Positions 9,259-27,019 of a stretch of 64,000 nt of DNA are shown here, piece by piece. Position 1 is the stretch's first letter. Every line of letters begins with the position of its first letter. A program made the position numbers and the translations under genes. The DNA is from a virus (lineage: Duplodnaviria; Caudoviricetes): IMG/VR virus record IMGVR_UViG_3300031413_000603, positions 1 to 64,000 of that record. One strand, 5' to 3'. A model generated the notes under the pieces. That model was not told the DNA's origin, did no database searches, and saw only the letters and a program-made list of their open reading frames with translations.

Positions 9259-12149
9259 TGGGCAACGCCCTTTCCTGAGGCGAGCTGGCGCATCAGCTCA
9301 TCGCCTGCGCGCTGGCTGTCCGCATCCGCGTAGTTGAGGGTGATGGGGCTGGAACGGCCCGGGATGTAGTTGTGCGAGACGTAGGAGGCACCGCTGCTGC
9401 CACTGGTGCCGGCAGTGCTGCTGGTAGAGCTGGACGGCGCGGGTGCTGGGCTGGCTGCAGGCGCGGCCTTGGGCGCCGTCTTGGCTTCCTTGGCCGCCTT
9501 CTGCTTGGCTGCCTCTGCCGCCATTGCTTCGGCTTCTTCCTTACCCTGGCCGTACTTGTAGTAGTCCACCACGTTGGACAGTGCGTGGTCCATTGAGTTG
9601 CCACGCCATTTCTTCTGACCGCCGTTGTCCATGTAGGCCACGTTGCCGTTGGCGTCGACAAAGTCTTTGCTGACATATTCGGCCAACGCTTCATCCAGGC
9701 CGGCGCCTTTGAGCCATTCGATGATGCCCTGGCGCGTGCCGGTGGAAGTGCCAGCCGTGCGGGTCTCATGGCCCATGTTGTCCTTGGGCACCTGCTTGGC
9801 GGCCTTCTCTGCGGCCGCGCCCATCTGGTCGAAGCTGCCAGCGGCTTGAAGAGCAGCATCACCCACGCCAGAGACAGCATCCCGGGCAGCGCCCATGCTA
9901 TTGCTGATGCTGTTGCCGGTGTTGTTGGCGCCATTGCGCAAAGTAGTGATCTCAGCCTGTAACCGCTCGATATTGGTGGCGGTTGCCTTCGCTTCGAGCT
10001 GTCGCACCTTTCCAAGCTCAATGCGATTACGTAGTTCGGCCTCGAGCTCCAGGTTTTGCTCGCTGTTGCGCTTCATCTCAATGAGCTTTGCTTCTGCAAC
10101 ACGAATCGCTGCATCAGCTTCATCGTTCATGGCCTTCACCGTGGCCTGGACAATCTTGATCTCGATTTCCTTCTGACGGATCTTCGACTGCAGCACGGCA
10201 ATCTCGTTCCCTGCAGCCTGTGCTGTTGCTTCATGTGCTCTTTCTTGGGACAGAGACAGATTCAGCCCAGCCTCCACCACCTTGTTTCGAGCTGCAAGTG
10301 AAGCTGCATTCATTTCAATCTGTTTGCTCGACAAGACAGCAGAGTTGCCAACTGAACGCTGTGCTTGATCCAACTGCAGAAGGGCCTCGGCTGCGCCCTG
10401 GAGATTGCCCAGCGCCATTTGCTTCTCATATAAGGCTCTTAGCTCTTTGACTCGAGCTGACTGCGTGCCCACCTCAGTGGCGGCATCTTTGGCAGCTTTG
10501 GATTGCTTCTGCCCAGAGGCTTCTGCTGCCTTGCCTGCTGCTTCAATGCTTGCAGCCATCGATTTAATGGCTTCCTCTGCAGTGGAGCTGGAATCGCCTG
10601 TGTCTTTGGTGGCGGCAGCGAGTCCAACGAATCCGTCCTGTGCCAATCGAGCAGCATTCGCTGCGTCATTCATTGAGTCTGCAGCTTTGTCACGCATAGC
10701 TTGAGCGGCATCGCCAAAGCCTTCGGCAGCACTGCGTGCATCTTCAGCAGCAAGCCTGAAACTCTCCGACAGTCCCCCGAAAGTCACACTGGCCAACCCA
10801 TCACGCAGTTTCGCCACCCCGGTGAGCACTATGGAGCCGATCTCTGAAAATACGGAACCAATACCGTATATCGCAGCCAGAACGATATTCACGCCACCAG
10901 CCATAACTCCATATGCGAGTTTGACGGTATTACCGGCGGTTGATGCGTATTCGCCGATCTGAGTGAAGACTGCACCTGTCTTGCTTGCAAACTCTTGGAT
11001 AGACGCAGCTATAACTTGAAAGTCAACCTGGGCAATAAAATCTTTCCACCATTTGATAGACGTGCGGACGGCTTCAGCAAATGCTTCCCCAAATTTTCCA
11101 ACAGTGCCGTCAGAAACAAAACCGCGAAGTGAATTCGCAAGCCCATTGACCGCATCCTTGAGGACGGGAAGCACAGGCGTGCCAAGTACATTTTTGACCG
11201 AGTCCCAGGTGCTTCCAAGGCTGTTCATTGCACCGCCAAGGTTGTCTTGCATGATGGCAGCAGTGCGGGCGGCACTACCTGCTGAATCAGTCAGTTTTCC
11301 CTTCAGATCGTCGAGTGCTCCTATTCCTTGGTTTAGCAATGCTCGCAGTGCTGGTCCAGCCTCCTGTCCAACTGCCAAAATTGCGCTAGAGCCAAGCGGC
11401 CCCGCTTCAGCGAGCTGACGCAATGCCTGGTCAAAGTTATTGGTAGTGATTCCAATGGCACTCAGGCTTTCGCGGAACTGGCTGGCAGGGTCGGAGAATT
11501 GCGAAAGAACACTGTTCAATGCCGTACCAGCACGGCTGGCATCAATCCCGGCGTCAGCGAATTTGCCAATGATCGCAACGGTGGATTCCAAACTGAGACC
11601 GAGACTGTGGGCAATTGGAGCGGTGTATGACAGCGCTTGAGCCAAGCCCTGAACACTGGTGTTGGAAGCGTTGGCGCCCTTAGCCAGAACATCAGCTACA
11701 CGTCCGGCATCACTGAAAGCCAACCCCATGCCCATCACAGCTTTGGTGATGAACTCGGCTGATTCTCCTAGTTGAGTCCCCCCGGCTTGCGCCAACAATA
11801 GGACAGGTGGAAGTGCCGTGACGGCCTCTTGTGCACTCAATCCAGCTTTGGCTAGATTTTCTAAGGCAGCAGCGGCCTCCGCACTGGTAAATGCAGTGGT
11901 AGCTCCCGCGTCCTCTGCAGACTTGCGGAGAGCCGCCATTTCGGTGGCAGAAGCATCCGTTGCAGCTTTCACTCGCGATAGAGCGGCTTCAAGTTCTCTT
12001 GCAGACTCCACACCTGCAGAGAAAAGGCGTACTGTGAAGAAGCCAATGATGGCGACAGCTACTGCAGCCGCCTTCGCCTGAATGCCTGAGAGCACTCCCG
12101 TCATCTCATCCTTCAGCCGGATGACAATTTCAATAAGCCTTTTATTCAC
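9255..12149 (-). CDS. Tail tape measure protein (TP901 family)
   Basis: Ala-rich helical protein with the TTAFTSAEAAAALENLAKAG core; GTG start at 12149 with GGGGA SD. Confidence 0.92.
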   Translation of the reverse strand: MNKRLIEIVIRLKDEMTGVLSGIQAKAAAVAVAIIGFFTVRLFSAGVESARELEAALSRVKAATDASATEMAALRKSAEDAGATTAFTSAEAAAALENLAKAGLSAQEAVTALPPVLLLAQAGGTQLGESAEFITKAVMGMGLAFSDAGRVADVLAKGANASNTSVQGLAQALSYTAPIAHSLGLSLESTVAIIGKFADAGIDASRAGTALNSVLSQFSDPASQFRESLSAIGITTNNFDQALRQLAEAGPLGSSAILAVGQEAGPALRALLNQGIGALDDLKGKLTDSAGSAARTAAIMQDNLGGAMNSLGSTWDSVKNVLGTPVLPVLKDAVNGLANSLRGFVSDGTVGKFGEAFAEAVRTSIKWWKDFIAQVDFQVIAASIQEFASKTGAVFTQIGEYASTAGNTVKLAYGVMAGGVNIVLAAIYGIGSVFSEIGSIVLTGVAKLRDGLASVTFGGLSESFRLAAEDARSAAEGFGDAAQAMRDKAADSMNDAANAARLAQDGFVGLAAATKDTGDSSSTAEEAIKSMAASIEAAGKAAEASGQKQSKAAKDAATEVGTQSARVKELRALYEKQMALGNLQGAAEALLQLDQAQRSVGNSAVLSSKQIEMNAASLAARNKVVEAGLNLSLSQERAHEATAQAAGNEIAVLQSKIRQKEIEIKIVQATVKAMNDEADAAIRVAEAKLIEMKRNSEQNLELEAELRNRIELGKVRQLEAKATATNIERLQAEITTLRNGANNTGNSISNSMGAARDAVSGVGDAALQAAGSFDQMGAAAEKAAKQVPKDNMGHETRTAGTSTGTRQGIIEWLKGAGLDEALAEYVSKDFVDANGNVAYMDNGGQKKWRGNSMDHALSNVVDYYKYGQGKEEAEAMAAEAAKQKAAKEAKTAPKAAPAASPAPAPSSSTSSTAGTSGSSGASYVSHNYIPGRSSPITLNYADADSQRAGDELMRQLASGKGVAQ

Positions 12150-12178
12150 GCTACATCCCCACAATGACGCATGCCGTC

Positions 12179-12228
12179 ACTGTCGCGTTTTGAGCGCAAA
12201 TGAATAAGGCCAGCAAATGCTGGCCTTA
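12179..12228 (-). promoter_or_regulatory. Putative Mor/C-activated late promoter (tail operon)
   Basis: TAAGGCCAGCA-AA-TGCTGGCCTTA dyad + TTATTCATTTGC + GACAGT -10; same spacing as the 18.0 and 25.6 kb copies. Confidence 0.75.
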
Positions 12229-12255
12229 GAGGAATGTGGGAGGGAGGGCCGGTGT

Positions 12256-13263
12256 TTAAACCTTGCGCCAGCGGTAGTACTTGCTGATGCCTTCGCCGGT
12301 CTTCGTAGAGTCCTGCATGATGGAGCCGGTGACCTTCATATTGATGAAGCCCTTTTCCTGCAGCAGTGCCAAGGATGATGCCACACCTTGGCTTGCGCGC
12401 CAAATGTTGACCACGGCAGGTTTGCCCGAGTCAGCTTCATTGAGTCCTTCAAAGATCAGTTCGAGCTCTTTGGGCTTGCTGGTCAGGGCTTCGATGACGG
12501 CGTAGTCGGCAAACTCGTAGTCGACCAGGATCTCGTCATCGTCCGCCAGGCCAGTCGCGTTGGGCACGATGTAGATACCGGCTGGCCGCACTTCATAGTT
12601 GCCTGCCGCAGGCACCTCGGGCCCCGAGGCCTGGTAGGTGTAGCTGATGTAGAGCGTGGAGTCATCGGCGACATCAGGAGCTGCAGCATCGATCTGCACA
12701 CCTGCAGGGGTGACGGTGTAGTTGCCGGGTGCCGAGAGAGTCGTTGCCGTGGCCACGCTGGCACCAATGCGCACCGTCACATTGCTGGCATTGAGGTGTG
12801 CCAGGGGCACCAAAGCTCCTTTGTCCACGTTCAGATGCTCCTCATCGATGACGGTCGCATTGGTGGGGCTGCCCATCTTCTTCTTGACAGTCACCTTGGA
12901 TGGGGCCAAGTGCAATGTGGGGCACAGGCCACCACGGGTCACCTTGAAGAGCTCGTCTTTAACTGCACCGGCATCCACGCCAGAGAAAGTACCCTGGCAT
13001 GCACGAGCCAGGTTGAGAACATTCAAGTCGGCCAGGGTCATGTTGATTTCCATGTCCGTGACGCGGCGCAGCTCGGCGTAGGTGCCGCCACCCATTTGGG
13101 TCATGTCAGGCTGCTTCTCGACATCTTCCTTGTGGGTCAGCTCCAGCGCCAGGACATTGCCCACGGGCAACGGGATCTGGGTGGAGCCGTATTCACGGGC
13201 ATAGACTTTTCCCGCAAGTGCTGCGGGCGCAAAGGTCTTCTTGATGAGGTTTTGTGCAGACAT
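12256..13263 (-). CDS. Major tail tube protein with nested Ig-like module duplication
   Basis: Position before the TMP; siphoviral tube motifs (GNV..LEL, GNYEVRPAGI); start ATG 13263. Confidence 0.85.
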   Translation of the reverse strand: MSAQNLIKKTFAPAALAGKVYAREYGSTQIPLPVGNVLALELTHKEDVEKQPDMTQMGGGTYAELRRVTDMEINMTLADLNVLNLARACQGTFSGVDAGAVKDELFKVTRGGLCPTLHLAPSKVTVKKKMGSPTNATVIDEEHLNVDKGALVPLAHLNASNVTVRIGASVATATTLSAPGNYTVTPAGVQIDAAAPDVADDSTLYISYTYQASGPEVPAAGNYEVRPAGIYIVPNATGLADDDEILVDYEFADYAVIEALTSKPKELELIFEGLNEADSGKPAVVNIWRASQGVASSLALLQEKGFINMKVTGSIMQDSTKTGEGISKYYRWRKV

Positions 13264-13265
13264 GG

Positions 13266-13475
13266 TCAATCCTTTGGAGAGTTGCTGATAACACCCTGAT
13301 CGCGGAGCCATCGGGCGGTTTCGGGATGCACGGAGATTTGAGCGCCCGCAGGTTTGCGTTCGCCCTGGTGTTCGTGTTCACGGACCAAGGTTACGGACAC
13401 CATTGCTGGTGAGGTGGCGACCAGGCGTGATGGCTTTTTGGTGGTGTTGGCAGTAGTGCTGGCTTTGGTACTCAT
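13266..13475 (-). CDS. Small virion-associated hypothetical protein
   Basis: ATGA overlap at 13472-13475; VTLVREHEHQG...ARWLRDQGVI. Confidence 0.65.
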   Translation of the reverse strand: MSTKASTTANTTKKPSRLVATSPAMVSVTLVREHEHQGERKPAGAQISVHPETARWLRDQGVISNSPKD

Positions 13476-13987
13476 TCGGTTCTCCATTCCGCCCAGTTGC
13501 GGGTGCGTAGCTCCAGGAGAGCGCTGTGGCACAGTACGCCGCAAAACAACACAGGGCCGGCGCTGGCCACCTGCACACCACGCTCCTGGGCAACGCTTGC
13601 CCCAAGCAAGTTGGGAAGGCCCAAGGTGGGGGTGACGCGCACGGCATCGCGCATGTGCTCCACCAGTTCATCAAACACCAGCTCGCTGCCGATATCGTCT
13701 TGAAACGCCAGGTAGCCCCGGATGTGCCAGGTGTGCTCATTGAGGACACGACCGTTCTCGGTGAGCTCGGTGGTCTCGACGCGGCGCACATACCAGCCTC
13801 GAATGTGCGGGGCAGCACCAAAGGCATCGATGCCAGGGTCGGCTGCGGTATAGACGTACAGGCCACGAAAGGTCTGCTCGCTGGAGGCCCAGCGCTCGCG
13901 GTGGTGGACGATGCCCACGCCAGGAACGGAGCGCAGTAGGGACACCAGGGCGTCACGGCTTTGGGCCAGGGTGCTGGGCATGGTCAT
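13472..13987 (-). CDS. Tail terminator/completion-type protein
   Basis: Position in the neck module, overlaps both neighbours. Confidence 0.65.
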   Translation of the reverse strand: MTMPSTLAQSRDALVSLLRSVPGVGIVHHRERWASSEQTFRGLYVYTAADPGIDAFGAAPHIRGWYVRRVETTELTENGRVLNEHTWHIRGYLAFQDDIGSELVFDELVEHMRDAVRVTPTLGLPNLLGASVAQERGVQVASAGPVLFCGVLCHSALLELRTRNWAEWRTE

Positions 13988-14487
13988 GGTGCGGCACCTC
14001 CGGCCAGCAGCTGGGCGATCTGGCCGGCAGCGGTTTCAAACATGGCCACGATCTGACCTTCGGTGGCCAGGGCTGCCCGCTCGAGCGGGCGCTGGGGCTT
14101 GGTGCCACGCTTGGCAATCTTGCGCGCCACCAGGAACGCCACGCGCTTGACCTCTTTGGGATCTCGGATGCCAAGCACTGCTCGTACCCAGGGCTCCATG
14201 GCAGCCACAGGCGGCATGTGGGGCTTGGTGCCCAGTTCAAGAAATACCGCAGTCGGCTGGCTGCTACTGACCACGCCCAGCACTCCCGCTGGGGTGGTGA
14301 ACACATCCGTGATGAAGCTGCGTGCCGTGATGCCTGTCACCTTCGGTGTGTTCTCCTGGGTTTCGCGCTGCACCAGCAGGGTTGCCTGGTGCATGGTCGC
14401 TTCTAGGACTTTCTGTGTTTCCGCTGGCGCTTCACGGAGCCCACGGGCATACGTGGTCAGGTCGCCGATGCTGATGGAGACATTCAT
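13984..14487 (-). CDS. HK97 gp10-like neck/tail completion protein
   Basis: VQRETQENTPKVTG...AVFLELGTKPH...RGTKPQRPL motifs; ATGA overlap at 14484-14487. Confidence 0.75.
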   Translation of the reverse strand: MNVSISIGDLTTYARGLREAPAETQKVLEATMHQATLLVQRETQENTPKVTGITARSFITDVFTTPAGVLGVVSSSQPTAVFLELGTKPHMPPVAAMEPWVRAVLGIRDPKEVKRVAFLVARKIAKRGTKPQRPLERAALATEGQIVAMFETAAGQIAQLLAGGAAP

Positions 14488-15167
14488 AGGAATGGTTCTC
14501 CCCGGCGAAACAGGCGTCTGCGACCAGGCCAACTGGCGACAGCAGCAGCTGGAGTCAAGGCGCTGCCATTCTCTGCCTGAGTCAAAGGATCGACCACACC
14601 GATGCCAGCGTAGTAGCCAGCGCGGTATTCCTTGGCACGACGTGCATACATGCTGGCCTTGCTTTCCGTGCGCGAGACATCGGCCCCAATGGCTGATTCA
14701 CGCTCGGCAGAAAAGCGGGTGGCCAACTGCTGGCATAGCAGATGGGCGGCATATTGCGCGACGGGCCATCTGTGCAGCGCAGGGATCGTGTCGGTATCGC
14801 CCTCCAAGATATGCGGAAGACTGAACTTTACGCGAACCACAGCGCCCTCAGGCAGTGACCGGACCGACTCCAGGCCCCAGGTGCCAATCAGATCGCGATA
14901 CGCATCCACAAAGAGGAGCGAGGCTGGATGCTGCCCCACGGGATACTCCGCACTGCGCACGATGGCCTCGTCGGCCCAGCCAGCAGGCACTGGCCCAAAA
15001 ACACCATGCTGGAGCCACACAACATCTTCCGTGAGCGCCCGAGGCACGTCTGCCCCATAGCGCAGTGCCGCTTCCTCAATGGCGCGGCGCTGAACGTCGG
15101 GTGCAACGTTGGAGGCCTGGTCTGGGACCAGGTCCGTCACGAGTTGCTGAAAATCGGCAAATGCCAC
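14484..15167 (-). CDS. Head-tail adaptor protein
   Basis: GTG at 15167 with AAGGA SD; follows the capsid gene. Confidence 0.65.
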   Translation of the reverse strand: MAFADFQQLVTDLVPDQASNVAPDVQRRAIEEAALRYGADVPRALTEDVVWLQHGVFGPVPAGWADEAIVRSAEYPVGQHPASLLFVDAYRDLIGTWGLESVRSLPEGAVVRVKFSLPHILEGDTDTIPALHRWPVAQYAAHLLCQQLATRFSAERESAIGADVSRTESKASMYARRAKEYRAGYYAGIGVVDPLTQAENGSALTPAAAVASWPGRRRLFRRGEPFL

Positions 15168-15225
15168 TGTCGATCCTTTAAAGGCTGCTGGGTTTGTGAA
15201 GGTTCCGCAGGCTGCAGCCCCTTTA

Positions 15226-15249
15226 CAAACCCACCCCTTACGGGGTGGG
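15226..15249 (-). terminator. Intrinsic terminator after the capsid gene
   Basis: CCCACCCC-GTAA-GGGGTGGG followed by TTTG on the - strand. Confidence 0.6.
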
Positions 15250-15322
15250 CCGGGTTCATTCACAAAGGAGAACCACTCCCTAGGCGCTGTGCGGCGCCTC
15301 GCTCTCCGCTGGGTGTGTCAGG

Positions 15323-17707
15323 TCAGGCAACCACCGATTTGCCGAATGCGCGGAAGTCCGTCACTGCGCCGCCGTAGATGTGGCGCAGCTTGTAGGTCAA
15401 CTTGTCGGCGGTGAACATCGAGCCCACGGTGGGCGAGTCCTGCACGAACAGCTCGGGCTCTTCCTTGCCGTTCAAGAAACCCATCTCGATGCCGGGAATG
15501 TCGGCAGGGTCGGCAGCGGTGCACCAGTCGTTCGCGTCCGTCCAGTACCACACAGGAATGATGTTCATGGTCAGCGACTGCATGAACGTCTTTTCGTTGT
15601 TGGTGGCCAGCTTGAACAGATCGACTGCTGCTTCCTGCAGGTCCACTGGCACGATCATGCGCGTGGGCGTAATGCCAATGCGATCATTGCTGGACAGCTC
15701 GGTTTGCTTGAGCATGGCCAGGCGGTGGGCAGCGAGCGAGGTCTTGTCCAGGGCCGTCGTAAACAGGTTGTTATGGTCAGCGTGGAACAAGGCCTTGCCG
15801 TCGTAGATCACGGCGTTGGAGCGCAGGAAGTCGAAGGCGAACTTCGCCAGCGTGCGCTTAGCTGCGCGCGAGAGCTTGGTCGGGATGCGACGAATCACGC
15901 CCACGTCATCGTTGGTGATCATCTCCAGCGTCACGTCCTCGGTGCCGCCGCGCTTGGTGACACCATAGGTGGCCTCCTCGTCCGTAGGGCTGGTCAGAGG
16001 CAGGTAATCAGCACCTTCGGCCACCGCAGGCAAGTCACCATAGCCGCCCCAGCGCGTGCGATGCTGCATGCGGAAGTCGCTCACAGGCACCACGTTGACG
16101 ATCTGACGCCAGCCATCGAAGTCCACGGCTGCACGATACTCGGAGAGCATGCGGCGCGCCACGGCATCGCCCAGCACTTCGCTCAGCGAAGATGAGCCCA
16201 GAGATTCAACCAGGCGCGACTGATCGCATTCACGCAGGCGGCCGGTGACGCGGCGGTCCCCCGTCATCTCGATGTAGCATTCCTTGAAGGATTGCACGCT
16301 GCCGTGGCTCTTGTGGGCAGGGTCAAAGAATGCGTCGAGCATGTCGCGCATGTTGAGGCTGCGGTCACCCACTTCGATGGAGCCCTCGCCGAACATCGGA
16401 ACGCGCACAGCACCGGATTCGGTCAGGCGGGCCACATACTCGCCCTCGGCTTTGATCATGTCGCCCACCGCTGCTTCTGTGAGGCGGTTGGCCGCTGCCA
16501 ATGCAATCTGCGTCTGCAGGCGGTCCTTGGACGCTTGAGGCAGCTTGGCGGCATTGACGCGGTCACGGGCCGCATTGCGCTGCTCGAAGACCTGCAGATC
16601 TGCACGAGTCAGAGGCGTGTTGTCACCCTGCGCCTCGGTCACGCGTTGCACGCCTGGCGAAGCAGCAGAATCAGGCACCAGCGAGCCGCACACGGCTTCG
16701 TAGAGGGTTGTCACTTCGTCGTCCGAGACGGTGTCCACCTGAATGGTGGCGTGTTTGGCTGGGTCTTTAGCCTTGATGGCTTCCAGCATGCGTTGCTTCC
16801 ACAGAGGCATGGCGCTTCCTTCTTGGGTAGTTGAGATATCGGCGGCGGCTTCGGTCAAACGATCCAGGCCGCCACCAGCGCCTGGCTCGACAATCAGGTC
16901 CACCGAATGCACCTTCACAAAGCGCACTGCTTCGCGCAACTGCTCGGTACCCACCTTGCGCTTCTTGGTGCGTGCGCTGGCATCGATGGACAGCCCTAGC
17001 AATCCCTGCATGCCTCGCTTGACTGCTTCCACCATCTTTTTGACAGTGGAATCGGTGGGGTCGATGGGTTTGAAGGTGCCAACGAGCGAGCCGGTATCGG
17101 GCGTCTTGCCTTCGACAAACCGCACGTCGTAGATACCGCCGATGAGGTTGTGGACGTCCTTTCCTTTGCCGGCCAGGTGGTCGGCGTCAGATTTGGAGAA
17201 CACTCGCACGCCCTCGAACATCGGGACTGCTTCGCGCAATGGCGCATCGGGGTAGTAGTTGAGGTTGCCGCTGCGCCCGCCCCGGATGAGGGTTACCTCG
17301 ATAGAGCCGTCTTGGGCCTCGCGGAAAGCCACGTCCAGCGATTCGCGCAGCACGGTCTTGTCGGCGGGAACGGTGGGCACATACGTTTCCACCACTTCCA
17401 CAGGCGCAGTCAGGGTGACCTGGTCGCCCGAGGGCGTTGCGGCCACGGTGTAGCCGTACTGGTACTTGCGACCGCCCAGCTCCACAATGGCGCGGTCAGC
17501 GTAAATGGCTGTCAGGGACACCCAGCGGTCATTGGCAGACTTGGTTGGATAGATGGCAGCGCCAACGGCGGCACGCACCAGGTCGATCAGCTGCCGAAAA
17601 TCGCGCTCAGGAGACGCCGCAGCTTCGCGCATGGCCGATTCGACGGCACCAGGCGTCTGCAGGCCGCCGCATGCGGCCAGCGCTGCAAGGATTTGAGCTA
17701 ACGTCAT
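15323..17707 (-). CDS. Fused prohead protease-scaffold-major capsid protein (Mu gpI/gpZ/gpT-like)
   Basis: Protease motifs (DHL..., GLSIDA, SVDLIVEPGAGG), central helical scaffold, C-terminal gpT-like capsid (SDFR..., YGDL..V.EG.Y, G..LFHADH.N). Confidence 0.88.
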   Translation of the reverse strand: MTLAQILAALAACGGLQTPGAVESAMREAAASPERDFRQLIDLVRAAVGAAIYPTKSANDRWVSLTAIYADRAIVELGGRKYQYGYTVAATPSGDQVTLTAPVEVVETYVPTVPADKTVLRESLDVAFREAQDGSIEVTLIRGGRSGNLNYYPDAPLREAVPMFEGVRVFSKSDADHLAGKGKDVHNLIGGIYDVRFVEGKTPDTGSLVGTFKPIDPTDSTVKKMVEAVKRGMQGLLGLSIDASARTKKRKVGTEQLREAVRFVKVHSVDLIVEPGAGGGLDRLTEAAADISTTQEGSAMPLWKQRMLEAIKAKDPAKHATIQVDTVSDDEVTTLYEAVCGSLVPDSAASPGVQRVTEAQGDNTPLTRADLQVFEQRNAARDRVNAAKLPQASKDRLQTQIALAAANRLTEAAVGDMIKAEGEYVARLTESGAVRVPMFGEGSIEVGDRSLNMRDMLDAFFDPAHKSHGSVQSFKECYIEMTGDRRVTGRLRECDQSRLVESLGSSSLSEVLGDAVARRMLSEYRAAVDFDGWRQIVNVVPVSDFRMQHRTRWGGYGDLPAVAEGADYLPLTSPTDEEATYGVTKRGGTEDVTLEMITNDDVGVIRRIPTKLSRAAKRTLAKFAFDFLRSNAVIYDGKALFHADHNNLFTTALDKTSLAAHRLAMLKQTELSSNDRIGITPTRMIVPVDLQEAAVDLFKLATNNEKTFMQSLTMNIIPVWYWTDANDWCTAADPADIPGIEMGFLNGKEEPELFVQDSPTVGSMFTADKLTYKLRHIYGGAVTDFRAFGKSVVA

Positions 17708-17714
17708 AGCAGCG

Positions 17715-17972
17715 TTACTCTGCCTTGATGGCGCCGGTCAGCTTCTGGCCATCCTTGGTCACCACCACGACATAGTCGCCGTAGTCCTTGAAAGACAGCA
17801 CCTCCGCTTCGGTGACAGGCACCTGCTTGGAACGGGCCACCTTGGCGGGCTTATCGTCTTTGCCTTTGCCGTCGACCAGCTCGGTGACGGTGCGCATGAC
17901 GCATTTGGCCGCCTGCGCAGCGCTCAGCTGCCGGGCGAGTTGATTGGATTTGGGGTCTTTGTCGTCTGCCAC
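17715..17972 (-). CDS. Small basic protein, first gene of the capsid operon
   Basis: 85 aa, GTG start with GGAG SD. Confidence 0.7.
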   Translation of the reverse strand: MADDKDPKSNQLARQLSAAQAAKCVMRTVTELVDGKGKDDKPAKVARSKQVPVTEAEVLSFKDYGDYVVVVTKDGQKLTGAIKAE

Positions 17973-18020
17973 TGGTCACTCCATCTGTTGAGGAACATCA
18001 CGCGGATTTGTGATGGAGTG

Positions 18021-18067
18021 ACTGTGCCTGGCGAGGCGCAAATGAATAAGGCCAGCATGTGCTGGCC
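18021..18067 (-). promoter_or_regulatory. Putative Mor/C-activated late promoter (capsid operon, PI-like)
   Basis: GGCCAGCA-CA-TGCTGGCC dyad + TTATTCATTTGC + CACAGT -10. Confidence 0.75.
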
Positions 18068-18115
18068 CTTGAAGCGATTCATTCTGTCAGCTAACGAGTA
18101 TCAACTGACCGAACT

Positions 18116-18892
18116 TTAGGCCTGGTTTTTCTTGTTAATTTGAGCGCTAAGCCACAGTATGTATTTCCTCAATCCTGAAGCAAACAACGGAGTTTTCAAA
18201 GCTTTGTAATCTATTTCATCCAAAGGATCTGAAACTTCGTCGGGCCAATAACTGAAGTGATGGATGACAAGAGCTGAGTTAGCAGCAATTCCCTCTTCAT
18301 GTTTTTGCAAATCGTGGTTGAAGTGAGTGAAAAAGAACTCAGACTTCAGCTTCGGTGAGTTGAGCGCCAAATGGAATTTTTGCCTCCAGTATTCCTCGTG
18401 CTCCTCCAGAATAATTTTAAGTTCTGATCCCACTATCAAATTGCCAATTTTTTGCGCGCGAGCCAGATGCCGAGCGCAAGTTAGCCAGCTCAACCTATCG
18501 TCTTTGGGATGTGGTGGAACATCGCTTATCCATACACTGTATGCCCACTCATACGACTTAATAGCTTGCTCTAGGTACTTTTCATCTCGTATCCATTGAC
18601 GTTCATTTGCATAGGCTCTTCGAGTAAGGTCAGTACCAAGAGCGACAGCTGCTAGTGCAAGCGCGGCAAACAATGCATTCACACCTCCAAACAAGTCACC
18701 AAGCTGGCCGAGTTTTTCTAAATTGCAGTTGGCACAAGCGTAGTTGAGAAATAGCTGTGCTCCAATGCTCCCCCAAAAGAGCCAGAGTAGTGGTAGCGCG
18801 AGTACGATAGACCCGGCGATCACCACATAGCGATGCTTCTTCCAAAAAACTCCTATCTTTTGCCTCTGTGCTTCGCATTCATCCATGTCCAA
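18116..18892 (-). CDS. AT-rich moron: membrane-anchored protein, putative abortive-infection family
   Basis: Visibly lower GC than neighbours; TM helices; GQLGDLFGGVNALF motif. Confidence 0.65.
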   Translation of the reverse strand: MDMDECEAQRQKIGVFWKKHRYVVIAGSIVLALPLLWLFWGSIGAQLFLNYACANCNLEKLGQLGDLFGGVNALFAALALAAVALGTDLTRRAYANERQWIRDEKYLEQAIKSYEWAYSVWISDVPPHPKDDRLSWLTCARHLARAQKIGNLIVGSELKIILEEHEEYWRQKFHLALNSPKLKSEFFFTHFNHDLQKHEEGIAANSALVIHHFSYWPDEVSDPLDEIDYKALKTPLFASGLRKYILWLSAQINKKNQA

Positions 18893-19022
18893 ACCTGATT
18901 AGCGTTATTGAAAGGTTGCAACTCTACCTTTAAACATGGTTTAAATCGACCGCCAAGGCATCTCTCTCGCATTTTTCATGGGGTAGCCGCAGCAGATGGC
19001 CTTAAAGGCTCCTAGCCGCTAT

Positions 19023-19967
19023 TCACTCCTGCCGCTGCCCAACCCGCTTTGCTGCCTGGTCAAGAGCGGCTTTCTTCCCATCCTGCTGTAGCTCAAGCTT
19101 GGTGAACGGCTTTGCACCAGGTGTGGTCATGCTCCACTCCTTCATCCAGGGAAGAGAGATACAGCCGCAATGAATGACCTGCTCGATGGGCGCACGGGGG
19201 TCATGCGGACACTGCATCAGATCAACCCCACCGCCAGGGTTTGGTACCTTAAACGGTTCTTTGGCACCCACTACCTGGCCATCAATGAGGTCATGGTTCC
19301 ATCGACTGTGCGTCTTCCCGCTGCGACGCCATTGTTTGCCAATGCCAGGCACTAGTTCCTGGGCTTGCGCGAGGCGCTCATTAGATGCCAGAGCAAACGC
19401 GCGGCTTACCTCGGTGCGCACGATGGCCGCTGCTCGCTGGGGCGCATCGTTGCCAAGAATCTTCTGCACCTTCTTGATGGCGTCAAACGGTGACTTGCCG
19501 CCAATGGTGACCAGGCCGAGCTCGGTGCCGATCTTGCGCAGGGACTCGGTCCCAACGTCCCGCAGGCGCAGTGTTCCGAATGCACGCATTTGTTTGAGCA
19601 CGGTGGCATCGAGCTGAGACAGCTGCAGCTCTACCCTGTGTCCGATGATGGCCAGGGGCTTGTCCACAAATTCCTCGCCCAGGCTCCAGGCATCCTGCAG
19701 GCGTAAGCCGAACACGGTGCCGGCCTGGCCAGTCGCGCCCGTCAGCACATCATCGATCTGCCCCAGCAGGCGAGACAGCTGCCACAGCTTCCAATCCGAT
19801 GGCTGGCTGGCCAGAGTGGCCTGGATCTGGGTGCGGGCTTCCACCAGTGTTCGGAGCACCTCGGCTTCACTCGATAGCAGCAACCTGGCGCGCTCGCGCA
19901 AGCGAAGCGAGAGCTCAGCTTCAAATGCGCGGCGCTTCTTATCCGCTGGATCAGGCTTGGTTGCCAT
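19023..19967 (-). CDS. Head morphogenesis protein (Mu gpF / SPP1 gp7 family)
   Basis: RA..IVRTEVSRA, KQWRRSG..HSRWNH, HCGC motifs. Confidence 0.88.
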   Translation of the reverse strand: MATKPDPADKKRRAFEAELSLRLRERARLLLSSEAEVLRTLVEARTQIQATLASQPSDWKLWQLSRLLGQIDDVLTGATGQAGTVFGLRLQDAWSLGEEFVDKPLAIIGHRVELQLSQLDATVLKQMRAFGTLRLRDVGTESLRKIGTELGLVTIGGKSPFDAIKKVQKILGNDAPQRAAAIVRTEVSRAFALASNERLAQAQELVPGIGKQWRRSGKTHSRWNHDLIDGQVVGAKEPFKVPNPGGGVDLMQCPHDPRAPIEQVIHCGCISLPWMKEWSMTTPGAKPFTKLELQQDGKKAALDQAAKRVGQRQE

Positions 19968-21501
19968 TTACCAGCTCGCTATCTGCATTGCCCTTGTCTT
20001 TGGCCTTGGCCGCAGCTTCATTTTTGGCTGCATTCAGGTCGCCGGGCAGGTTGGTGAACACGTCGCTGGCCGCTTTCTCTTTGGCACGCGTCTGGGCTTC
20101 CTGACGTGCAGCTTCCAGCTCAGTCTTGGCATCAAAGTCTTGGCCGAAGCGCTGGGCCACATCAGCAACGATCTTCAACGCAGTCTCTTCGGTCATCAGG
20201 CCTGCATCGATCAGCTGAATCACCGCTGTCACCACAGTCTGCATCGCGCTGGCAAACTTGGTGAGATCACGGTTGAGTAGCTCTGGGAATACGGCGGTGA
20301 CCTGCCATTCATCCTCGGACCAATCTGGCGTTACACCTCTGGTACGGGCATTGCACAGCAGAAGATAGCGGCCGATCTCTTCAAGCATCAGCTTCAGGAA
20401 CGACTGCCGGCTGCTGTACATCTTGAAGGTGGGCTCACCCATCTCAGAAGCCGCTGCGCGGTTCACGTCACCCCCACCCCCAAACCAGTGCTCGGGCATG
20501 GTGCTGCCGCCTAGAACCTGATTGCGCAATAGGCGTGCGCTCTGGCTAGTGTCTGCCGATTGCAGCTCTGGTGCCATGGGTTTGAGCTCGACCTGGTCGT
20601 TATGCACAAAGGTGCTGTTGGGGCCAGGTGGCACAAACGTCTTCTCATACTTGGCGACGGTCGCTTCATCAGCGCCCTTGAGGGTGACGTCCCAGACGAA
20701 CGAGCGAAGATAGCCGATGCGGTCGATCTCACCAAACAGAAATTCGTCGTAGGCATCGAGCCAATCCATCTGACCCAGAAGATCGGACCGGCCACGGCTC
20801 CCATTGGGAAACTTGTTGAGCTGGTACAGCACGCAGTCGCCATCCGTGAACGACTCGGCCCGGATGCGCGTGGTGTTAGCGCTGAACAGTTCTTGATCCT
20901 CTCCAAGGACGATGACGCGGTATTTGAACTGGCGTCCACGGCTATCACGCTTGGTGATCACGCCAATGGGCTGCTCTGGGTTGTCCGGGTCGTTGACCAC
21001 GGTGGCGATCTGGCGCGGGTCCAAGTAGCCAAAGCGCACAAAGCCGTCACCCTCACGCACATTAGCGATATAGCACTGCTCACCCATGAGACCCAGAGCA
21101 CGCACTCGAGGCTGCAGCTTGAGCGGCCAGTTGTTGATGGGGTCAGACCAGAACGAATTGAGCAGCTTCTGGTGCTCTTCATTCTTGCATTGCAGGGTAA
21201 CTCCCTCGGCCAGCAGATAGGCCAGTGGCAGCTCCACCAGGCGGTTGGCCAGGAGGTTGCTCTGCCACAGGTGTTCGGCCAGCTTCTGCATGCGGTCCTG
21301 GGCCATGGGCGCCAGGTCGCGCTCATTGATAGAGTCCAGGCCGTTGCCAGTCACCCGGCGCCAACCGGCTTCACCATCGCCCTGGGCGCTTGCGGCTTCC
21401 CGCATTGGTGCCGATGCTGGGCTTACGGGTGTGGTCGGTGCATCTGAGAGAGCTGAAGTACCAAGGCCTAGCGCGGCCTTAAATGTGTTGAACCATCGCA
21501 T
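19951..21501 (-). CDS. Portal protein
   Basis: 516 aa after terL; GRSDL, GG..MPEHWFG motifs. Confidence 0.82.
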   Translation of the reverse strand: MRWFNTFKAALGLGTSALSDAPTTPVSPASAPMREAASAQGDGEAGWRRVTGNGLDSINERDLAPMAQDRMQKLAEHLWQSNLLANRLVELPLAYLLAEGVTLQCKNEEHQKLLNSFWSDPINNWPLKLQPRVRALGLMGEQCYIANVREGDGFVRFGYLDPRQIATVVNDPDNPEQPIGVITKRDSRGRQFKYRVIVLGEDQELFSANTTRIRAESFTDGDCVLYQLNKFPNGSRGRSDLLGQMDWLDAYDEFLFGEIDRIGYLRSFVWDVTLKGADEATVAKYEKTFVPPGPNSTFVHNDQVELKPMAPELQSADTSQSARLLRNQVLGGSTMPEHWFGGGGDVNRAAASEMGEPTFKMYSSRQSFLKLMLEEIGRYLLLCNARTRGVTPDWSEDEWQVTAVFPELLNRDLTKFASAMQTVVTAVIQLIDAGLMTEETALKIVADVAQRFGQDFDAKTELEAARQEAQTRAKEKAASDVFTNLPGDLNAAKNEAAAKAKDKGNADSELVNGNQA

Positions 21502-21504
21502 GGC

Positions 21505-21684
21505 TTAGCCCTCCATCTGCAGCTCGGCGCCCACCAGGGCGAATGCCATGCGACCGTGGTCGTTGTGGACAGCGACGACCTCGCGCAGCTTGGCTGCTGC
21601 GAGCTCAACGCCATCACGGTCAGCAGGCGGCAGATCGGCAATGGCGCCTTTGATCAGCAGGAGGGTAGCTTGTTCTTCAGTCAT
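21505..21684 (-). CDS. Small hypothetical protein
   Basis: 59 aa, ATG 21684 right after the terL stop. Confidence 0.65.
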   Translation of the reverse strand: MTEEQATLLLIKGAIADLPPADRDGVELAAAKLREVVAVHNDHGRMAFALVGAELQMEG

Positions 21685-21685
21685 T

Positions 21686-23356
21686 TCATCCTCGGCGATA
21701 CATGCGCGCCGACTGGCGTGCATAGCGCTCGCGGGCGCTTTGGTGTTGGTGGTTGGTGTTCCCGCCCTGGGCTGCAGCGGCAATGCCGCCCGTGACGGCC
21801 AGCATGTAAAGCATCTGCACCATGTCGGGACCGTCATCGTGGTCGGCCTTGGGAAAGTGGCGGAACTGGTCGATCAGAGTGGTCTGGCTGGAATGCAGAC
21901 GGATCAGGCCGTTATGCATATGGGGCTGCAGGCTCTCGATTCGCAGCACCTTGTCGCTGATGGGGGTCAGGGCGCGCGCTGGCACAGGAATGCCAGCCTG
22001 GGCGCTGCGCTTGACCAGCTCGGTGCGCAGGAATTCCTGAAACTGCACCGACTCGATGCCCCAAACAATGCAGCAGTACTCGGCCTGCATCTCGATCACA
22101 TCGCTGATGATGCGGTCGGGCACGCGCTTTTTGATGACAGCTTCGACCACGTCCAGGATGCCGGTTTCGCGGTTGTAGCCGCCTACGCCAATGGCGCTGG
22201 GGTCGCGGCTGTTCCCAGCCTTGCCGAGCGACGGATCGCAGGCGCCATAGAAAATCCAGTCCGTCAGGCGATTGACCCAGAACCGGATGGAATTGGCAAA
22301 CGGGGCATCGTCGCCCGCCGTAGGGTCGTTCTGCTGCTCGCTGTCAAAGGCTGCGTGACCTTCACGGGCGCGGCGAATCATGAGCTTGACCAGGGGCCGC
22401 AGCGCAGGCCAGGACACCTGGGCGCCCTTGTCCATTTCTGCCTGGTTCTCCTGGTAGAGCCGCATGGCAGCGGCCTCGCCCAACTGCGGCGTTTCGCCGG
22501 CGATCAAGAGGCCTTCAAACTGCTCCCACAGGTCCATGCGGTCGGGCCACCGAATGACGGCTCTGAAAACCTTGTGATTCCAGAGCGGGTTCTTGAGGAA
22601 GCGGGCGAGCACGCTGTCATAGTGCAAGACAGTGCCAACCAGGATGGCATCCATGGAGTCGTCTGGTGGTCCGAGCGACAACACGCTCTTGGTGACAAAG
22701 GCCTGCAGCTTGTCGCGCTGGGCCGGCGTGTTGACGTTCTCGTCGTTCTCGATGTCATCACAGATGGCCAGATCTGGTCGGTGAGCACCATGTCGTCGAC
22801 CCCGGATTTTCTTGGACGAGCCAAAGGCCTCGACCTTACGGCCGTTGGCAGTGACGATCACGCCGGCACGCCACACGCGGCCCTGGCCACAGGCTTCGGG
22901 GAAGTCGCTAGCAATGCGCGGGTTGGCTTCGAGCTCGGCCTTGATGGCTTCGAGCATCTCGGCGGCCTGCTCGAATGCATCCATCACGATGATGACGTAC
23001 CACTTGGCACCTGTTATCAGGCACCAAGTGGCAAAGCTCATGCTGATCTTTGTGGACTTGGCCTCACCTCGAGGCGCTGCAATGGCGTCGCGCTGGCCCG
23101 TGGATGCATTGACGATCTCGGGCAGGCGTTTGTAGAGGTATTTGTGCAGCTCGCTGGGCTCGGCCTTGCCATAGTGCGGGAAGTAGTGCCGATCCCAGTA
23201 CTCAAATCCGTTTACCGGGTCACAGACCAGGCGGCGACGCTCTGCAATGGCTGCTGGGCTGTTGTCCCAGCCATCCATGTTGGCATCGACCTGCTTACGC
23301 AGATCGTCGGCCAGCGCTGCCAGGCCTGCCAAAAAGTCTTTACTGCTCTTGGCCAT
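21686..23356 (-). CDS. terL: Terminase large subunit
   Basis: APRGEAKST Walker A, ICDDIE Walker B, GACDPS and HDDGPD nuclease motifs. Confidence 0.93.
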   Translation of the reverse strand: MAKSSKDFLAGLAALADDLRKQVDANMDGWDNSPAAIAERRRLVCDPVNGFEYWDRHYFPHYGKAEPSELHKYLYKRLPEIVNASTGQRDAIAAPRGEAKSTKISMSFATWCLITGAKWYVIIVMDAFEQAAEMLEAIKAELEANPRIASDFPEACGQGRVWRAGVIVTANGRKVEAFGSSKKIRGRRHGAHRPDLAICDDIENDENVNTPAQRDKLQAFVTKSVLSLGPPDDSMDAILVGTVLHYDSVLARFLKNPLWNHKVFRAVIRWPDRMDLWEQFEGLLIAGETPQLGEAAAMRLYQENQAEMDKGAQVSWPALRPLVKLMIRRAREGHAAFDSEQQNDPTAGDDAPFANSIRFWVNRLTDWIFYGACDPSLGKAGNSRDPSAIGVGGYNRETGILDVVEAVIKKRVPDRIISDVIEMQAEYCCIVWGIESVQFQEFLRTELVKRSAQAGIPVPARALTPISDKVLRIESLQPHMHNGLIRLHSSQTTLIDQFRHFPKADHDDGPDMVQMLYMLAVTGGIAAAAQGGNTNHQHQSARERYARQSARMYRRG

Positions 23357-23493
23357 TACCGCTGCTCCAAAGAGTGCAGGTAGACAAACAGCCACTTAAA
23401 CTGCCACTGCTTGTTGCCGTAGCATTTAAAGCGAGGCAGCAAACACCAGTCACGTGGGTCCATCAAAATGAGTACGAGATCACGTTGCGACAC
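23356..23493 (-). CDS. Unannotated 45-aa ORF (MSQRDLVLILMDPRDWCLLPRFKCYGNKQWQFKWLFVYLHSLEQR)
   Basis: GGAGG SD 5 nt before GTG; TAATG overlap with the terL start. Confidence 0.55.
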   Translation of the reverse strand: MSQRDLVLILMDPRDWCLLPRFKCYGNKQWQFKWLFVYLHSLEQR

Positions 23494-23581
23494 GGCAACC
23501 TCCACCAGCAAGCAGTAGTAGCAATGCCTTGCCCCAATGGCCTTCTACCAAAAGCCAGACAAACAAGATGGCGCTTAGCAT
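23480..23581 (-). CDS. Unannotated 33-aa hydrophobic ORF (MLSAILFVWLLVEGHWGKALLLLLAGGGCRVAT)
   Basis: ATG 2 nt after the terS stop; overlaps the next micro-ORF. Confidence 0.5.
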   Translation of the reverse strand: MLSAILFVWLLVEGHWGKALLLLLAGGGCRVAT

Positions 23582-23583
23582 CG

Positions 23584-24081
23584 CTATCGCACCTTCGCAA
23601 GCTCTGCGCCAAATGGCTCCAACATCTCGACCAGCGCCGAGAGGTGCTGCGGGAACTGTTGCTGCGCAAATGAGGCAAAGCGCTGCAGGACGTCGAGCTG
23701 CACCGCCTGGCGGTCAAGCTCGGGATTGAGGCGCTTAAAAGCAGCCATCGTCTTGTTGAAACTGTCGCTCATGCTGGCGAGCGTTTCAGCACGGGCCATG
23801 GCGGACATGTCCTTGGCATCGCGCAGCAGATCCATGGTGGCCTGGTGCTGTACCAGGTAGTCCTCGAGCAGCTTGGTCGAGAGGGCTTTAAAGTTGTCAT
23901 CCCCCAAGGCCACGGCTGCTCGGCCCGTATCCCAATCGTCGCCTTGGGCAGCGGCTTCCTGCTTCCAGCGATTGGCCGTGCCGCGTGGTACACCGAGCTT
24001 TTTGCAGGCAGCATCCATCGGCAAGCGCTGAAACACATACAGGCCGCGCAACTGGGTGCGTTTTTCCTTGCCGTGTGCCAT
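23584..24081 (-). CDS. Terminase small subunit (DUF1804-like HTH)
   Basis: N-terminal HTH (LGVPRGTANRWK...GDDWD), upstream of terL. Confidence 0.75.
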   Translation of the reverse strand: MAHGKEKRTQLRGLYVFQRLPMDAACKKLGVPRGTANRWKQEAAAQGDDWDTGRAAVALGDDNFKALSTKLLEDYLVQHQATMDLLRDAKDMSAMARAETLASMSDSFNKTMAAFKRLNPELDRQAVQLDVLQRFASFAQQQFPQHLSALVEMLEPFGAELAKVR

Positions 24082-24377
24082 CAGTTGCCCAGCCCGCCGC
24101 CGCCACGTATGAACTGACGAATGCCTTCGACCACTAAGGCAGTGCCAACAGCGACCGCACCACCCGAGACTGCACCAGCCACGGCGGCTTTCTTCTCGAC
24201 CTCGCGCAGACGCTCATCCAGGCCTTCGTAGTGCTCCTCCATGCGCGATTCCATCCGGTCCATCCGGCGGTTTTGCAAGTCCTGGCCTTCCTTGATGGAC
24301 TGCACCAAGCCATGGATTTGACCAAGGATGAAATCCTGGTTGCTGCTCTTTGGGGTGTTGTTATCCGATTGGTTCAT
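24081..24377 (-). CDS. Coiled-coil protein with C-terminal TM (lysis/packaging junction)
   Basis: ATGA overlap with the Rz stop; AAVAGAVSGGAVAVGTALVV TM. Confidence 0.7.
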   Translation of the reverse strand: MNQSDNNTPKSSNQDFILGQIHGLVQSIKEGQDLQNRRMDRMESRMEEHYEGLDERLREVEKKAAVAGAVSGGAVAVGTALVVEGIRQFIRGGGGLGN

Positions 24378-24928
24378 GGCTGAGAGTTGGTCTTTGTGCC
24401 GGTCTGGTTGAACAATTGGGCGCGGCACGATGCGTAGGCCGCATTGATGGTTTCTGCCTCGGCAATTACTGCTCCAAGGCGCTCCGAATTTCCCTGTGGA
24501 AGTAGCCCGTAGGTTTGGGTTGGGTCTGCTGCACCAGAGTTGATGGCGGGGGCAGGTTGACCCTCGGAGCTTCCACCACCTGACCCACAGGCTGGGGTGG
24601 TGGTGACGATGCGCACCCGAACAGGCCGGCGCTTGAGCTCATCACCAAGGCGAGCAATTTCCAGTTTTGTGGATTCATCGGTTTTCTCCTGCTGCTGGCG
24701 GTTGCGATTCAAAGCAGCCTGTGCGGTATCGCGCTCAGTGGTGAGCCGGTCCAGCGTCTTTTGCGCATTGCGGTTTTGCTCTCGCACATCAGCCTGCAGG
24801 CTCTGCAGGTCTTTGGTCGCGATGGTCGCTTTGGATCGGTAGTGGTCAGTGCTCCAGGAGAGCAGCAGCACCAGCGCAGAGGCTGCGAGCAGGAGCCATC
24901 GCGTAATGGGACCAAGGATTGGGTTCAT
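24374..24928 (-). CDS. Rz: Rz-like inner-membrane spanin
   Basis: N-terminal TM, periplasmic coiled coil, follows the endolysin. Confidence 0.8.
   Translation of the reverse strand: MNPILGPITRWLLLAASALVLLLSWSTDHYRSKATIATKDLQSLQADVREQNRNAQKTLDRLTTERDTAQAALNRNRQQQEKTDESTKLEIARLGDELKRRPVRVRIVTTTPACGSGGGSSEGQPAPAINSGAADPTQTYGLLPQGNSERLGAVIAEAETINAAYASCRAQLFNQTGTKTNSQP
24466..24678 (-). CDS. Rz1: Rz1-like outer-membrane spanin embedded in Rz
   Basis: Lipobox LFGC, Pro-rich, in a different frame wholly inside Rz. Confidence 0.8.
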   Translation of the reverse strand: MNPQNWKLLALVMSSSAGLFGCASSPPPQPVGQVVEAPRVNLPPPSTLVQQTQPKPTGYFHREIRSALEQ

Positions 24929-25563
24929 GGCTGCGCCTTCCAGGTGCTGGTGGCAAAGTCATAGTTGGCACGTAGCAAAGCAACGCCCTTCAAGCAGCTG
25001 CTGCGCTCTTTGAGACGCCGGTTGTAGAGCCCCTGCACATAGCGGTATTCCCATGCGCCATCGGCCGTGCGCTTTCCCGTCTTGGTATAGCTCCACGCTG
25101 GCGTGCCGTCAGGACCATGCGCCAAGGCATCGCAAGCTGCCTCGTATTGCTTGGTATTGAGCAAGCCCATGGCCCTGCTTGCGCAGGTCGAGGGCTCACC
25201 AAAGTTGTGCCCGTGGGAGGAGAAGGCGTCCAGAATGGGCTGCGAGACCGGCACCCTGATGCAGTTCAGCACCTTTGCCTGGCCGCGACCTGCGACCTGG
25301 CTGCCTACTGACCAGCATTGCTGATCGGACCAGTAGTCGCCCAGCACGACAGGGACAGGACTGACGGCCTTGGTGAGTCCTACGCAGGCGGTGGGAATGC
25401 CGCCTGCTACGTTGTCTGCATAGACGATGTTTTTAAAGCGAGGCGTGCCATCGGGCTTCGGCGGTCCATCTTCGTAGTTGGACAGATATGCGACATAGCC
25501 GGCACCGCCCAGCACAAGCGGGATGCCGAAGCGGATAACAGTTTGGCCGAGTGATTGAGACAT
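24925..25563 (-). CDS. SAR endolysin (GH24 lysozyme)
   Basis: Gly/Ala-rich N-terminal TM (FGIPLVLGGAGYVAYL) then E...YAD..GGIPTACVG; GL..RR..E C-terminus; start ATG 25563. Confidence 0.85.
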   Translation of the reverse strand: MSQSLGQTVIRFGIPLVLGGAGYVAYLSNYEDGPPKPDGTPRFKNIVYADNVAGGIPTACVGLTKAVSPVPVVLGDYWSDQQCWSVGSQVAGRGQAKVLNCIRVPVSQPILDAFSSHGHNFGEPSTCASRAMGLLNTKQYEAACDALAHGPDGTPAWSYTKTGKRTADGAWEYRYVQGLYNRRLKERSSCLKGVALLRANYDFATSTWKAQP

Positions 25564-25569
25564 GCCTCG

Positions 25570-25617
25570 ACTGTCGTTGCGCCGAGGCAAATAAATAAGG
25601 CCAGCATATGCTGGCCC
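25570..25617 (-). promoter_or_regulatory. Putative Mor/C-activated late promoter (lysis operon, Plys-like)
   Basis: GGCCAGCA-TA-TGCTGGCC dyad + TTATTTATTTGC + GACAGT -10, with ATG 7 nt downstream. Confidence 0.75.
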
Positions 25618-26123: not shown

Positions 26124-26134
26124 GAGTACCTCAT

Positions 26135-27009: not shown

Positions 27010-27019
27010 ACAAAAATGT

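Follow-up and report, generated by a model that had tools for sequence, protein, structure and literature searches.

RNA hairpins across the predicted start sites of Mor/C-type late promoters in a Mu-like prophage: a candidate gate on translation by transcript origin

Leaderless mRNAs are known from phages, the cI mRNA of lambda initiated at PRM being one example. In phage T4, hairpins close the translation start regions of genes e, soc, 49 and I-TevI on early transcripts, whereas these regions are open on late transcripts (PMC3014915). In phage Mu, Pm and the late promoters (Mor/C) carry a 16-bp imperfect dyad centred at -43.5 with a poor -35 element adjoining it (PMC2582627, PMC4390567, bioRxiv 10.1101/2025.05.02.651988). 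The present analysis concerns the late operons of a Mu-like transposable prophage of Comamonadaceae type, namely the IMG/VR provirus IMGVR_UViG_3300031413_000603 (76-kb record), of which positions 1 to 64,000 constitute the stretch of DNA considered here, hereafter the window. Ahead of the lysis gene, the capsid operon and the tail operon, a first-pass annotation had pointed out RNA hairpins, here numbered (i), (ii) and (iii), lying across the predicted transcription start site (+1) of a late promoter, and had read them, by analogy with T4, as silencing mRNA that enters from upstream. From the sequences, their conservation and their predicted folds, which were obtained directly, we put at roughly 0.55 the probability that a T4 e/soc-type gate is built into these Mor/C late promoters, with most weight on sites (i) and (ii). 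In the literature searched, no description of a transcript-origin gate of the T4 kind was found for Mu-like phages.

The promoter cassette occurs in exactly three copies in the 76-kb record, all on the - strand and one before each hairpin (Table 1). It is composed of a palindrome, GGCCAGCA-NN-TGCTGGCC, then TTATTYATTTGC, with exactly 23 nt from the palindrome to a -10-like hexamer (G/C)ACAGT. Among 40 related viral records, 33 contain the cassette pattern in two to three copies per genome, on one strand, and the reversed pattern, used as a control on the same 40 records, gave no match. The relatives further display an invariant palindrome-hexamer gap of 23 nt, an A kept at position 2 and a T at position 6 of the hexamer, a T-rich and weak -35 element (TTAKTT or TTTTTT) with a spacer of 17 bp, and a CA(T/C) motif with its A at the 7th to 9th nt after the hexamer (26/27 lysis and 28/29 capsid promoters). 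When +1 is set as the 7th nt after the hexamer, i.e., at 25563, 18014 and 12172, the palindrome spans -53 to -36 and its dyad centre falls at -44.5 at all three sites. This geometry, with a predicted activator and a predicted +1, matches the Mor/C-dependent promoter architecture of Mu, whose late promoters likewise combine a recognisable -10 with a poor -35 and a dyad activator site near -44; as such, the promoters and start sites originally assigned fit the Mor/C geometry and are conserved in relatives. A generic sigma-70 scan did not call the cassette promoters.

The palindrome arms vary among phages (GGCCAGCA, GGCCGACA, GGCCTGCA) yet are identical at all sites of one genome, which is what recognition by the phage's own activator would be expected to produce, and this concerted change suggests that the palindrome co-evolves with each phage's Mor/C-type activator, the candidate for which in the window is given in Table 1. 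In several genomes, the same single mismatch (GGCCAGCA / GGCCCGCA) is kept at two sites. When the window's own palindrome was used as an exact pattern against viral contigs, few matches were obtained, mostly unrelated. Together with their U-rich tails, the three palindromes are also the top three terminator-like sites between 9000 and 28000 (9-10 pairs), and UUAGUUUUUU tails follow the palindrome in relatives. With its flanks and U-rich tail, the lysis palindrome looks like an intrinsic (Rho-independent) terminator for the repressor operon located upstream, a function predicted from the sequence. The idea that the palindrome is a terminator only was discarded, since a fixed distance separates it from the hexamer and its arms vary in concert across the sites of a genome.

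At the capsid operon, predicted folds and arm position strongly support hairpin (ii) as a conserved helix over the Shine-Dalgarno sequence (SD). In the window, its arms pair perfectly over 11 bp across the GGAG SD (-22.1 kcal/mol; z -2.6 relative to shuffled sequences), as originally described. An RNA starting at +1 had been expected to free the SD, which holds only in part here: this short RNA folds at -8.2 kcal/mol (z +1.0) and the unpaired probability of the SD core rises from 0.001 to 0.15. All relatives possess the hairpin, in the form of a 10-13 bp helix that joins the SD region to a 5' strand extending from the hexamer's GT to about +3, and that usually encloses a small GC hairpin. Their long RNAs, which include the sequence upstream of +1, fold at -18 to -31 kcal/mol and the short ones at about -8 to -14 kcal/mol, with mean z of -4.09 and +0.50, respectively. 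Accessibility was first scored over a region extending from the SD to the start codon plus 70 nt downstream, which was too coarse, and then over the SD core, where the unpaired probability (28 sequences) is 0.047 for the long form, 0.38 for the short form and 0.23 when the upstream part is shuffled; in 22 of the 28, the native long form falls within the lowest 5% of shuffles.

Among 45 unique cassette-bearing sequences, which display 35 distinct arm pairs, the SD pairs with a 5' arm beginning at hexamer position -5 to 0 in 43, the two outliers being spurious cassette matches. Overlap with the -10 in every lineage makes sense for a helix that the late mRNA is to lack, not for one that it is to contain. 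Divergent lineages keep the pairing with other arms, i.e., GUUCUCUCCUG / CAGGAGCGAAC, CAGUUGCUCC / GGAGCAACUG, CAUGCG..CCAUCG / CGAUGG..CGCAUG, UCCUAUCAGC / GCUGAUAGGA and UCGCUCCGUC / GACGGAGCGA. A covariance model of the hairpin retrieved 37 matches from the near-identical group only and missed the divergent lineages, which were therefore compared sequence by sequence, MAFFT combined with RNAalifold having misaligned the divergent arms in mixed lineages. In predicted folds and arm position, this hairpin thus behaves across the family as the T4 analogy predicts. The capsid promoter spacer (18023-18040) contains a second small inverted repeat, whose 3' arm extends into the first bases of the -10 hexamer; it reads UGUGCC-N6-GGCACA in most relatives, with compensated variants UGUGCU/AGCACA and UGCGGC/GCCGCA.

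At the lysis site, the layout differs in that the start codon itself lies at the predicted +1. As originally stated, the endolysin ATG is found there without a usable SD, the GAGG being 1 nt short of the ATG and too close to serve, and hairpin (i) captures the A of this ATG (25563-25561), and that base only. RNAfold predicts 9 bp including one G.U pair (-15.9 kcal/mol, z -3.05), a value equalled by 1 of 200 shuffles. Of 27 distinct lysis promoters, 26 have an ATG 6-8 nt after the hexamer, opening five different N-terminal families, and the exception (G019) has a leader with GGAG. An SD cannot fit within this distance, and the lysis protein is conserved from its second codon on, which makes the ATG the start; moreover, the promoter-ATG distance is fixed whatever the gene, as a leaderless mRNA predicts, and provides independent support for the assigned +1. 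We thus infer that the lysis gene mRNA is leaderless, with the AUG at a predicted 5' end, no SD and an unstructured 5' end: in relatives, the folds of the short lysis RNAs are weaker than those of shuffles (mean z +1.07, with 85% above 0), and the short RNA of the window folds at -1.2 kcal/mol (z +1.7). The hairpin around the lysis -10 recurs with varying arms (CCUCG/CGAGG, CCCCG/CGGGG, CCCGC/GCGGG, GUCGCCAC/GUGGCGGC), native arm pairs reaching -14.0 kcal/mol vs -11.9 kcal/mol for swapped ones (p 1e-4), and the unpaired probability of the start region is 0.37 in the long form vs 0.69 in the short form.

In phage Mu, the start sites of Plys and PI have been mapped with S1 nuclease; they were placed here from the GenBank annotation together with the oligonucleotides of PMC4461284, designed with 20 nt downstream of the mapped starts. 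At Plys, +1 lies 7 nt after TAGACT (L149:857), and the lys ATG is covered by a helix of CUGCCAUCA (-8 to +1; Mu record positions 10448-10456) with UGAUGGCGG (10478-10486); folding energies are -13.9 kcal/mol (z -3.0) for the long form and -1.5 kcal/mol for the short one. At PI, the first ATGs fall within a 12-bp helix that extends from about -9 to +4 (-14.7 kcal/mol and z -5.8 in the long form, -1.5 kcal/mol in the short one). Terminators are predicted ahead of both promoters. With hairpins straddling mapped starts and covering the first ATGs at both sites, the prototype has the same design, and it shares with the window the organisation in three structural late operons. Mu nonetheless differs in that its terminator and C site are separate, the latter not being a GC-rich perfect palindrome, in that lys has an 18-24-nt leader with an SD instead of being leaderless, and in that it encodes both Mor and C whereas the window record has one family member. 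Muvirus relatives, at least 96.7% identical at Plys, are too similar to be informative on covariation. The literature searched gave no description of the Mu hairpins, the original 1986 and 1989 Mu papers falling outside its scope. The first ATGs at PI open a 6-codon upstream open reading frame (uORF; ATG ATG AGC AGC AGG ACA TGA; L150:2540-2560, record positions 18039-18059), the first ATG being about 8 nt from the mapped +1 and the stop overlapping the annotated start of gene I as ATGA.

The tail site fits the scheme in the window phage, as judged from its predicted folds, yet is lineage-specific. Hairpin (iii) is present as first reported, trapping the AUG of a uORF (-16.6 kcal/mol, z -3.6). 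What had been overlooked is an outer helix that extends the long form to -26.9 kcal/mol (z -4.6), and that does not exist in the RNA starting at 12172 (-5.4 kcal/mol, z -0.9). In relatives without an antisense open reading frame (ORF), an ATG recurs at the predicted +1 of the tail promoter; in one of them (L148), the stop of a short uORF overlaps the start of the tape-measure protein (TMP) gene as ATGA and in another (L131), TMP itself starts at the predicted +1, which, in this small sample, hints that TMP translation may be coupled to a leaderless uORF. The antisense ORF, which is conserved and encodes about 50-60 aa with two transmembrane segments, separates the tail cassette from the TMP start in most relatives (L116:1-300, L117:14650-14900 and equivalents), with its stop abutting the cassette, and is absent from the window (12150-12210). 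In relatives having this ORF, the palindrome is flanked by T-runs on both sides and resembles a bidirectional terminator.

Several observations weigh against such a gate, and part of them favour an unlikely but not negligible explanation in which the lysis and tail hairpins merely mirror GC-rich spacers and discriminators together with promoter motifs (UGCC in the spacer, GGC before +1, ACAGT), selection bearing on the leaderless layout and the promoter only. Besides the stability that lysis arm pairs retain when swapped, the accessibility of the lysis ATG in long RNA is close to that of controls in which the upstream part was shuffled (0.37 vs 0.45, median rank 0.20), and in the window no base of this ATG beyond its A is paired by the hairpin. 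At the tail, native and swapped arm pairs are no different among relatives (p 0.57), the mean z of the long form is -0.59 across relatives and the accessibility of the start region is no different between long and short forms across the family, such that the tail hairpin does not stand as a shared gate. On the antisense strand, folding is as good as on the sense strand or slightly better, and without strand asymmetry the G.U pairs provide no evidence for the sense strand. For the capsid stem, the covariation count in the close, near-invariant group is no better than in shuffles, so that support comes from a handful of divergent lineages, where the pairing is kept, and from position. A by-product would nevertheless not account for the capsid helix, which is maintained with different arms in distant lineages and always over the SD, for the advantage of native over swapped lysis pairs, or for the same layout at Mu Plys and PI. 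For the lysis gene, the gate originally proposed is consequently reweighted: the leaderless ATG is robust while the hairpin does modestly better than composition predicts, and, with an ATG modestly less accessible than in shuffles and a fixed leaderless layout, the latter would be the main gate and the hairpin a weaker second layer.

The question of what there is to silence bears on the remaining explanations. Read-through may be scarce, given the terminator-like palindrome directly upstream, and the capsid and tail operons follow other late genes, with no evident gain from silencing. As mistimed translation would be harmless there, the main effect might concern transcription or RNA fate, a ribosome block leading to Rho termination or decay and the output of each operon being set by its own promoter for stoichiometry rather than for prevention of harm. 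A terminator look-alike and a predicted closed start region at every operon boundary agree with this view, as does the tail cassette parting the abundant tail-tube gene from the low-copy TMP. This possibility, which we consider quite improbable as the main effect, refines the gate rather than constituting a true alternative to it. Least probable of all, the hairpins would belong to the late mRNAs, starting upstream of the 5' arms, and serve either to stabilise the 5' end or to repress translation until a phage factor opens them, in the way Com opens the Mu mom mRNA. In its favour, the anti-SD helix is deeply conserved before the first capsid-operon gene, even in relatives without the GGCC cassette, and the start sites of the family are predicted, not mapped. 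On the other side, the 5' arm in those 43 of 45 unique capsid sequences overlaps the sole -10-like hexamer present, the lysis genes would be left without a usable start region, having no SD and an ATG at a fixed distance from the hexamer, and the S1-mapped Mu starts fall within or at the end of the 5' arms.

In the gate that we favour, each late operon would open with a boundary module made of the GC-rich 18-bp palindrome, a T-rich and weak -35, the 17-bp spacer, (G/C)ACAGT and CAT, where the palindrome may act in DNA as a Mor/C-type activator site and in RNA as an intrinsic-terminator-like hairpin. Initiation would take place at the A of the conserved CAT, and the translation start of the first cistron would work only if the RNA 5' end is at +1. 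At the lysis gene, the leaderless ATG would become internal on a longer RNA, without SD and partly paired; at the capsid operon, the SD would be locked by a helix whose 5' strand is encoded by -8 to +3 and is missing from promoter-initiated RNA. RNA leaking past the terminator, either from the repressor operon or from a preceding operon, would be translationally silent and, being untranslated, may be exposed to Rho. The start sites, the read-through RNA and the effect on translation are inferred from the sequence features described above. The repressor operon is the likely source of read-through RNA into the endolysin gene: it is co-stranded with and reads towards this gene in the window phage, as first noted, and same-strand genes, repressor or other, lie upstream of the lysis cassette in 7/7 relatives examined. 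The terminator look-alike that the first-pass annotation had missed in between may make such read-through rare. Altogether, the original reading is supported for the promoters and their start sites, the direction of the repressor operon and the capsid hairpin, and the comparison with Mu favours it; it is not supported for the tail and overestimated the strength of the lysis hairpin.

As in T4, the longer RNA would hold the SD and/or the AUG in a helix, the DNA encoding the 5' strand of this helix contains the predicted late promoter, so that the late RNA would lack that strand, and a lysis gene is among the targets. Contrary to T4, the promoters are of sigma-70 type with a predicted Mor/C-family activator instead of gp55/gp33, the lysis gene relies on a putative leaderless ATG instead of an exposed SD, and a terminator look-alike is fused to the activator site directly upstream; the present system is known from sequence and predicted folds. 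The lysis gene resembles lambda cI in having its start codon at the predicted 5' end, no SD and a translation that would depend on where the transcript starts, with the difference that it is a late gene under an activator-dependent promoter and that the proposed role is to exclude read-through RNA.

The features underlying this analysis are collected in Table 1. The endolysin ORF has a hydrophobic, Gly/Ala-rich N-terminus. The presumed activator gene is assigned from a PF08765 match at 36309-36554 (26.4 bits, above cut-off). A 351-aa gene at 12256-13311, immediately ahead of the tail cassette, gave no Pfam match, and no obvious tail-chaperone gene separates it from the TMP gene. The closest genome match is Comamonas odontotermitis (strain Dant 3-8, L151; capsid identity 93%), which has the same hairpin, and Acidovorax facilis DSM 649 and Paracidovorax citrulli DSM 17060 also carry close relatives; the prophage family is found across Comamonadaceae, with distant members in Alphaproteobacteria. 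The closest isolated phage is 44% identical only, and a near-DNA search among isolated phages gave a sole match, at 72%, in a Ralstonia phage. The 24 sequencing runs listed for window positions 16600-26500 are all of DNA or unknown type, mostly phyllosphere metagenomes.

Table 1. Predicted elements of the three late cassettes and relevant genes, in window coordinates.
Feature	Position	Strand	Remarks
Lysis palindrome, GGCCAGCA-TA-TGCTGGCC	25599..25616	-	18 bp, perfect; putative Mor/C-type activator site; at -53..-36
Lysis -35-like hexamer, TTATTT	25593..25598	-	weak; 17 bp from -10-like hexamer; geometry per PMC2582627
Hairpin (i), 5' arm, UGCCUCG	25583..25589	-	in promoter spacer, entirely upstream of +1
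Lysis -10-like hexamer, GACAGT	25570..25575	-	in loop and base of hairpin (i)
Hairpin (i), 3' arm, CGAGGCA	25563..25569	-	ends on A of ATG = predicted +1
Capsid-operon palindrome	18050..18067	-	putative activator site and terminator look-alike
Capsid -10-like hexamer, CACAGT	18021..18026	-	predicted +1 = A18014
Hairpin (ii), 5' arm (anti-SD), GUCACUCCAUC	18012..18022	-	at -8..+3
Hairpin (ii), 3' arm, GAUGGAGUGAC	17975..17985	-	holds SD GGAG (17982-17979), ahead of GTG 17972
Tail-cassette palindrome	12208..12225	-	
Tail -10-like hexamer, GACAGT	12179..12184	-	predicted +1 = A12172
Hairpin (iii), ACAGUGACG (12183-12175), loop GCAUG, CGUCAUUGU (12169-12161)	12161..12183	-	uORF AUG in loop
Extended long-form tail structure	12144..12201	-	outer helix 12201-12191 with 12155-12144; buries TMP GTG 12149
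8-codon uORF from predicted +1	12146..12172	-	TGA overlaps TMP GTG (12149) as GTGA
Helix-turn-helix/S24 repressor gene	26833-26135	-	first gene of operon 25677..26833 upstream of endolysin
DUF4124 protein gene	26138-25677	-	second gene of repressor operon
Endolysin gene (Phage_lysozyme)	25563-24925	-	predicted leaderless ATG at 25563
First capsid-operon gene, 85 aa	17715..17972	-	GTG start at 17972
794-aa gene, next after the 85-aa gene	17707-15323	-	residues 494-788 (C-terminal part) = capsid-protein domain
TMP gene	from 12149	-	GTG start
Ner-like gene	26930-27307	+	
Mu-type transposase gene	27304-29523	+	
Mor/C-family (PF08765) gene	36039-36566	+	presumed late activator; sole one in record

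More tentatively, and at slightly less than even odds, start regions that depend on the RNA 5' end could be a general design rule of Mor/C late operons, from Mu (Plys, PI) to the prophages of Comamonadaceae and Alphaproteobacteria, relying either on a leaderless AUG or on an anti-SD strand encoded at about -8 to +3, with an activator site fused to a terminator in the present clade. On this view, a single 60-bp module would terminate, re-initiate and decide which RNA gets translated, and a compact module of this kind is a possible insulator part. For annotation of this prophage family, the corresponding rule is that the first late gene can begin at +1 without an SD. Mu, for which promoters, activator, read-through from Pm and start sites are established, provides a direct test system. 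For the biology of transposable phages in which the repressor operon and the lysis genes are co-stranded, the gate would explain how endolysin production is avoided in lysogens, and it would add a post-transcriptional layer to the Mu late cascade, so far studied almost solely at the level of transcription.

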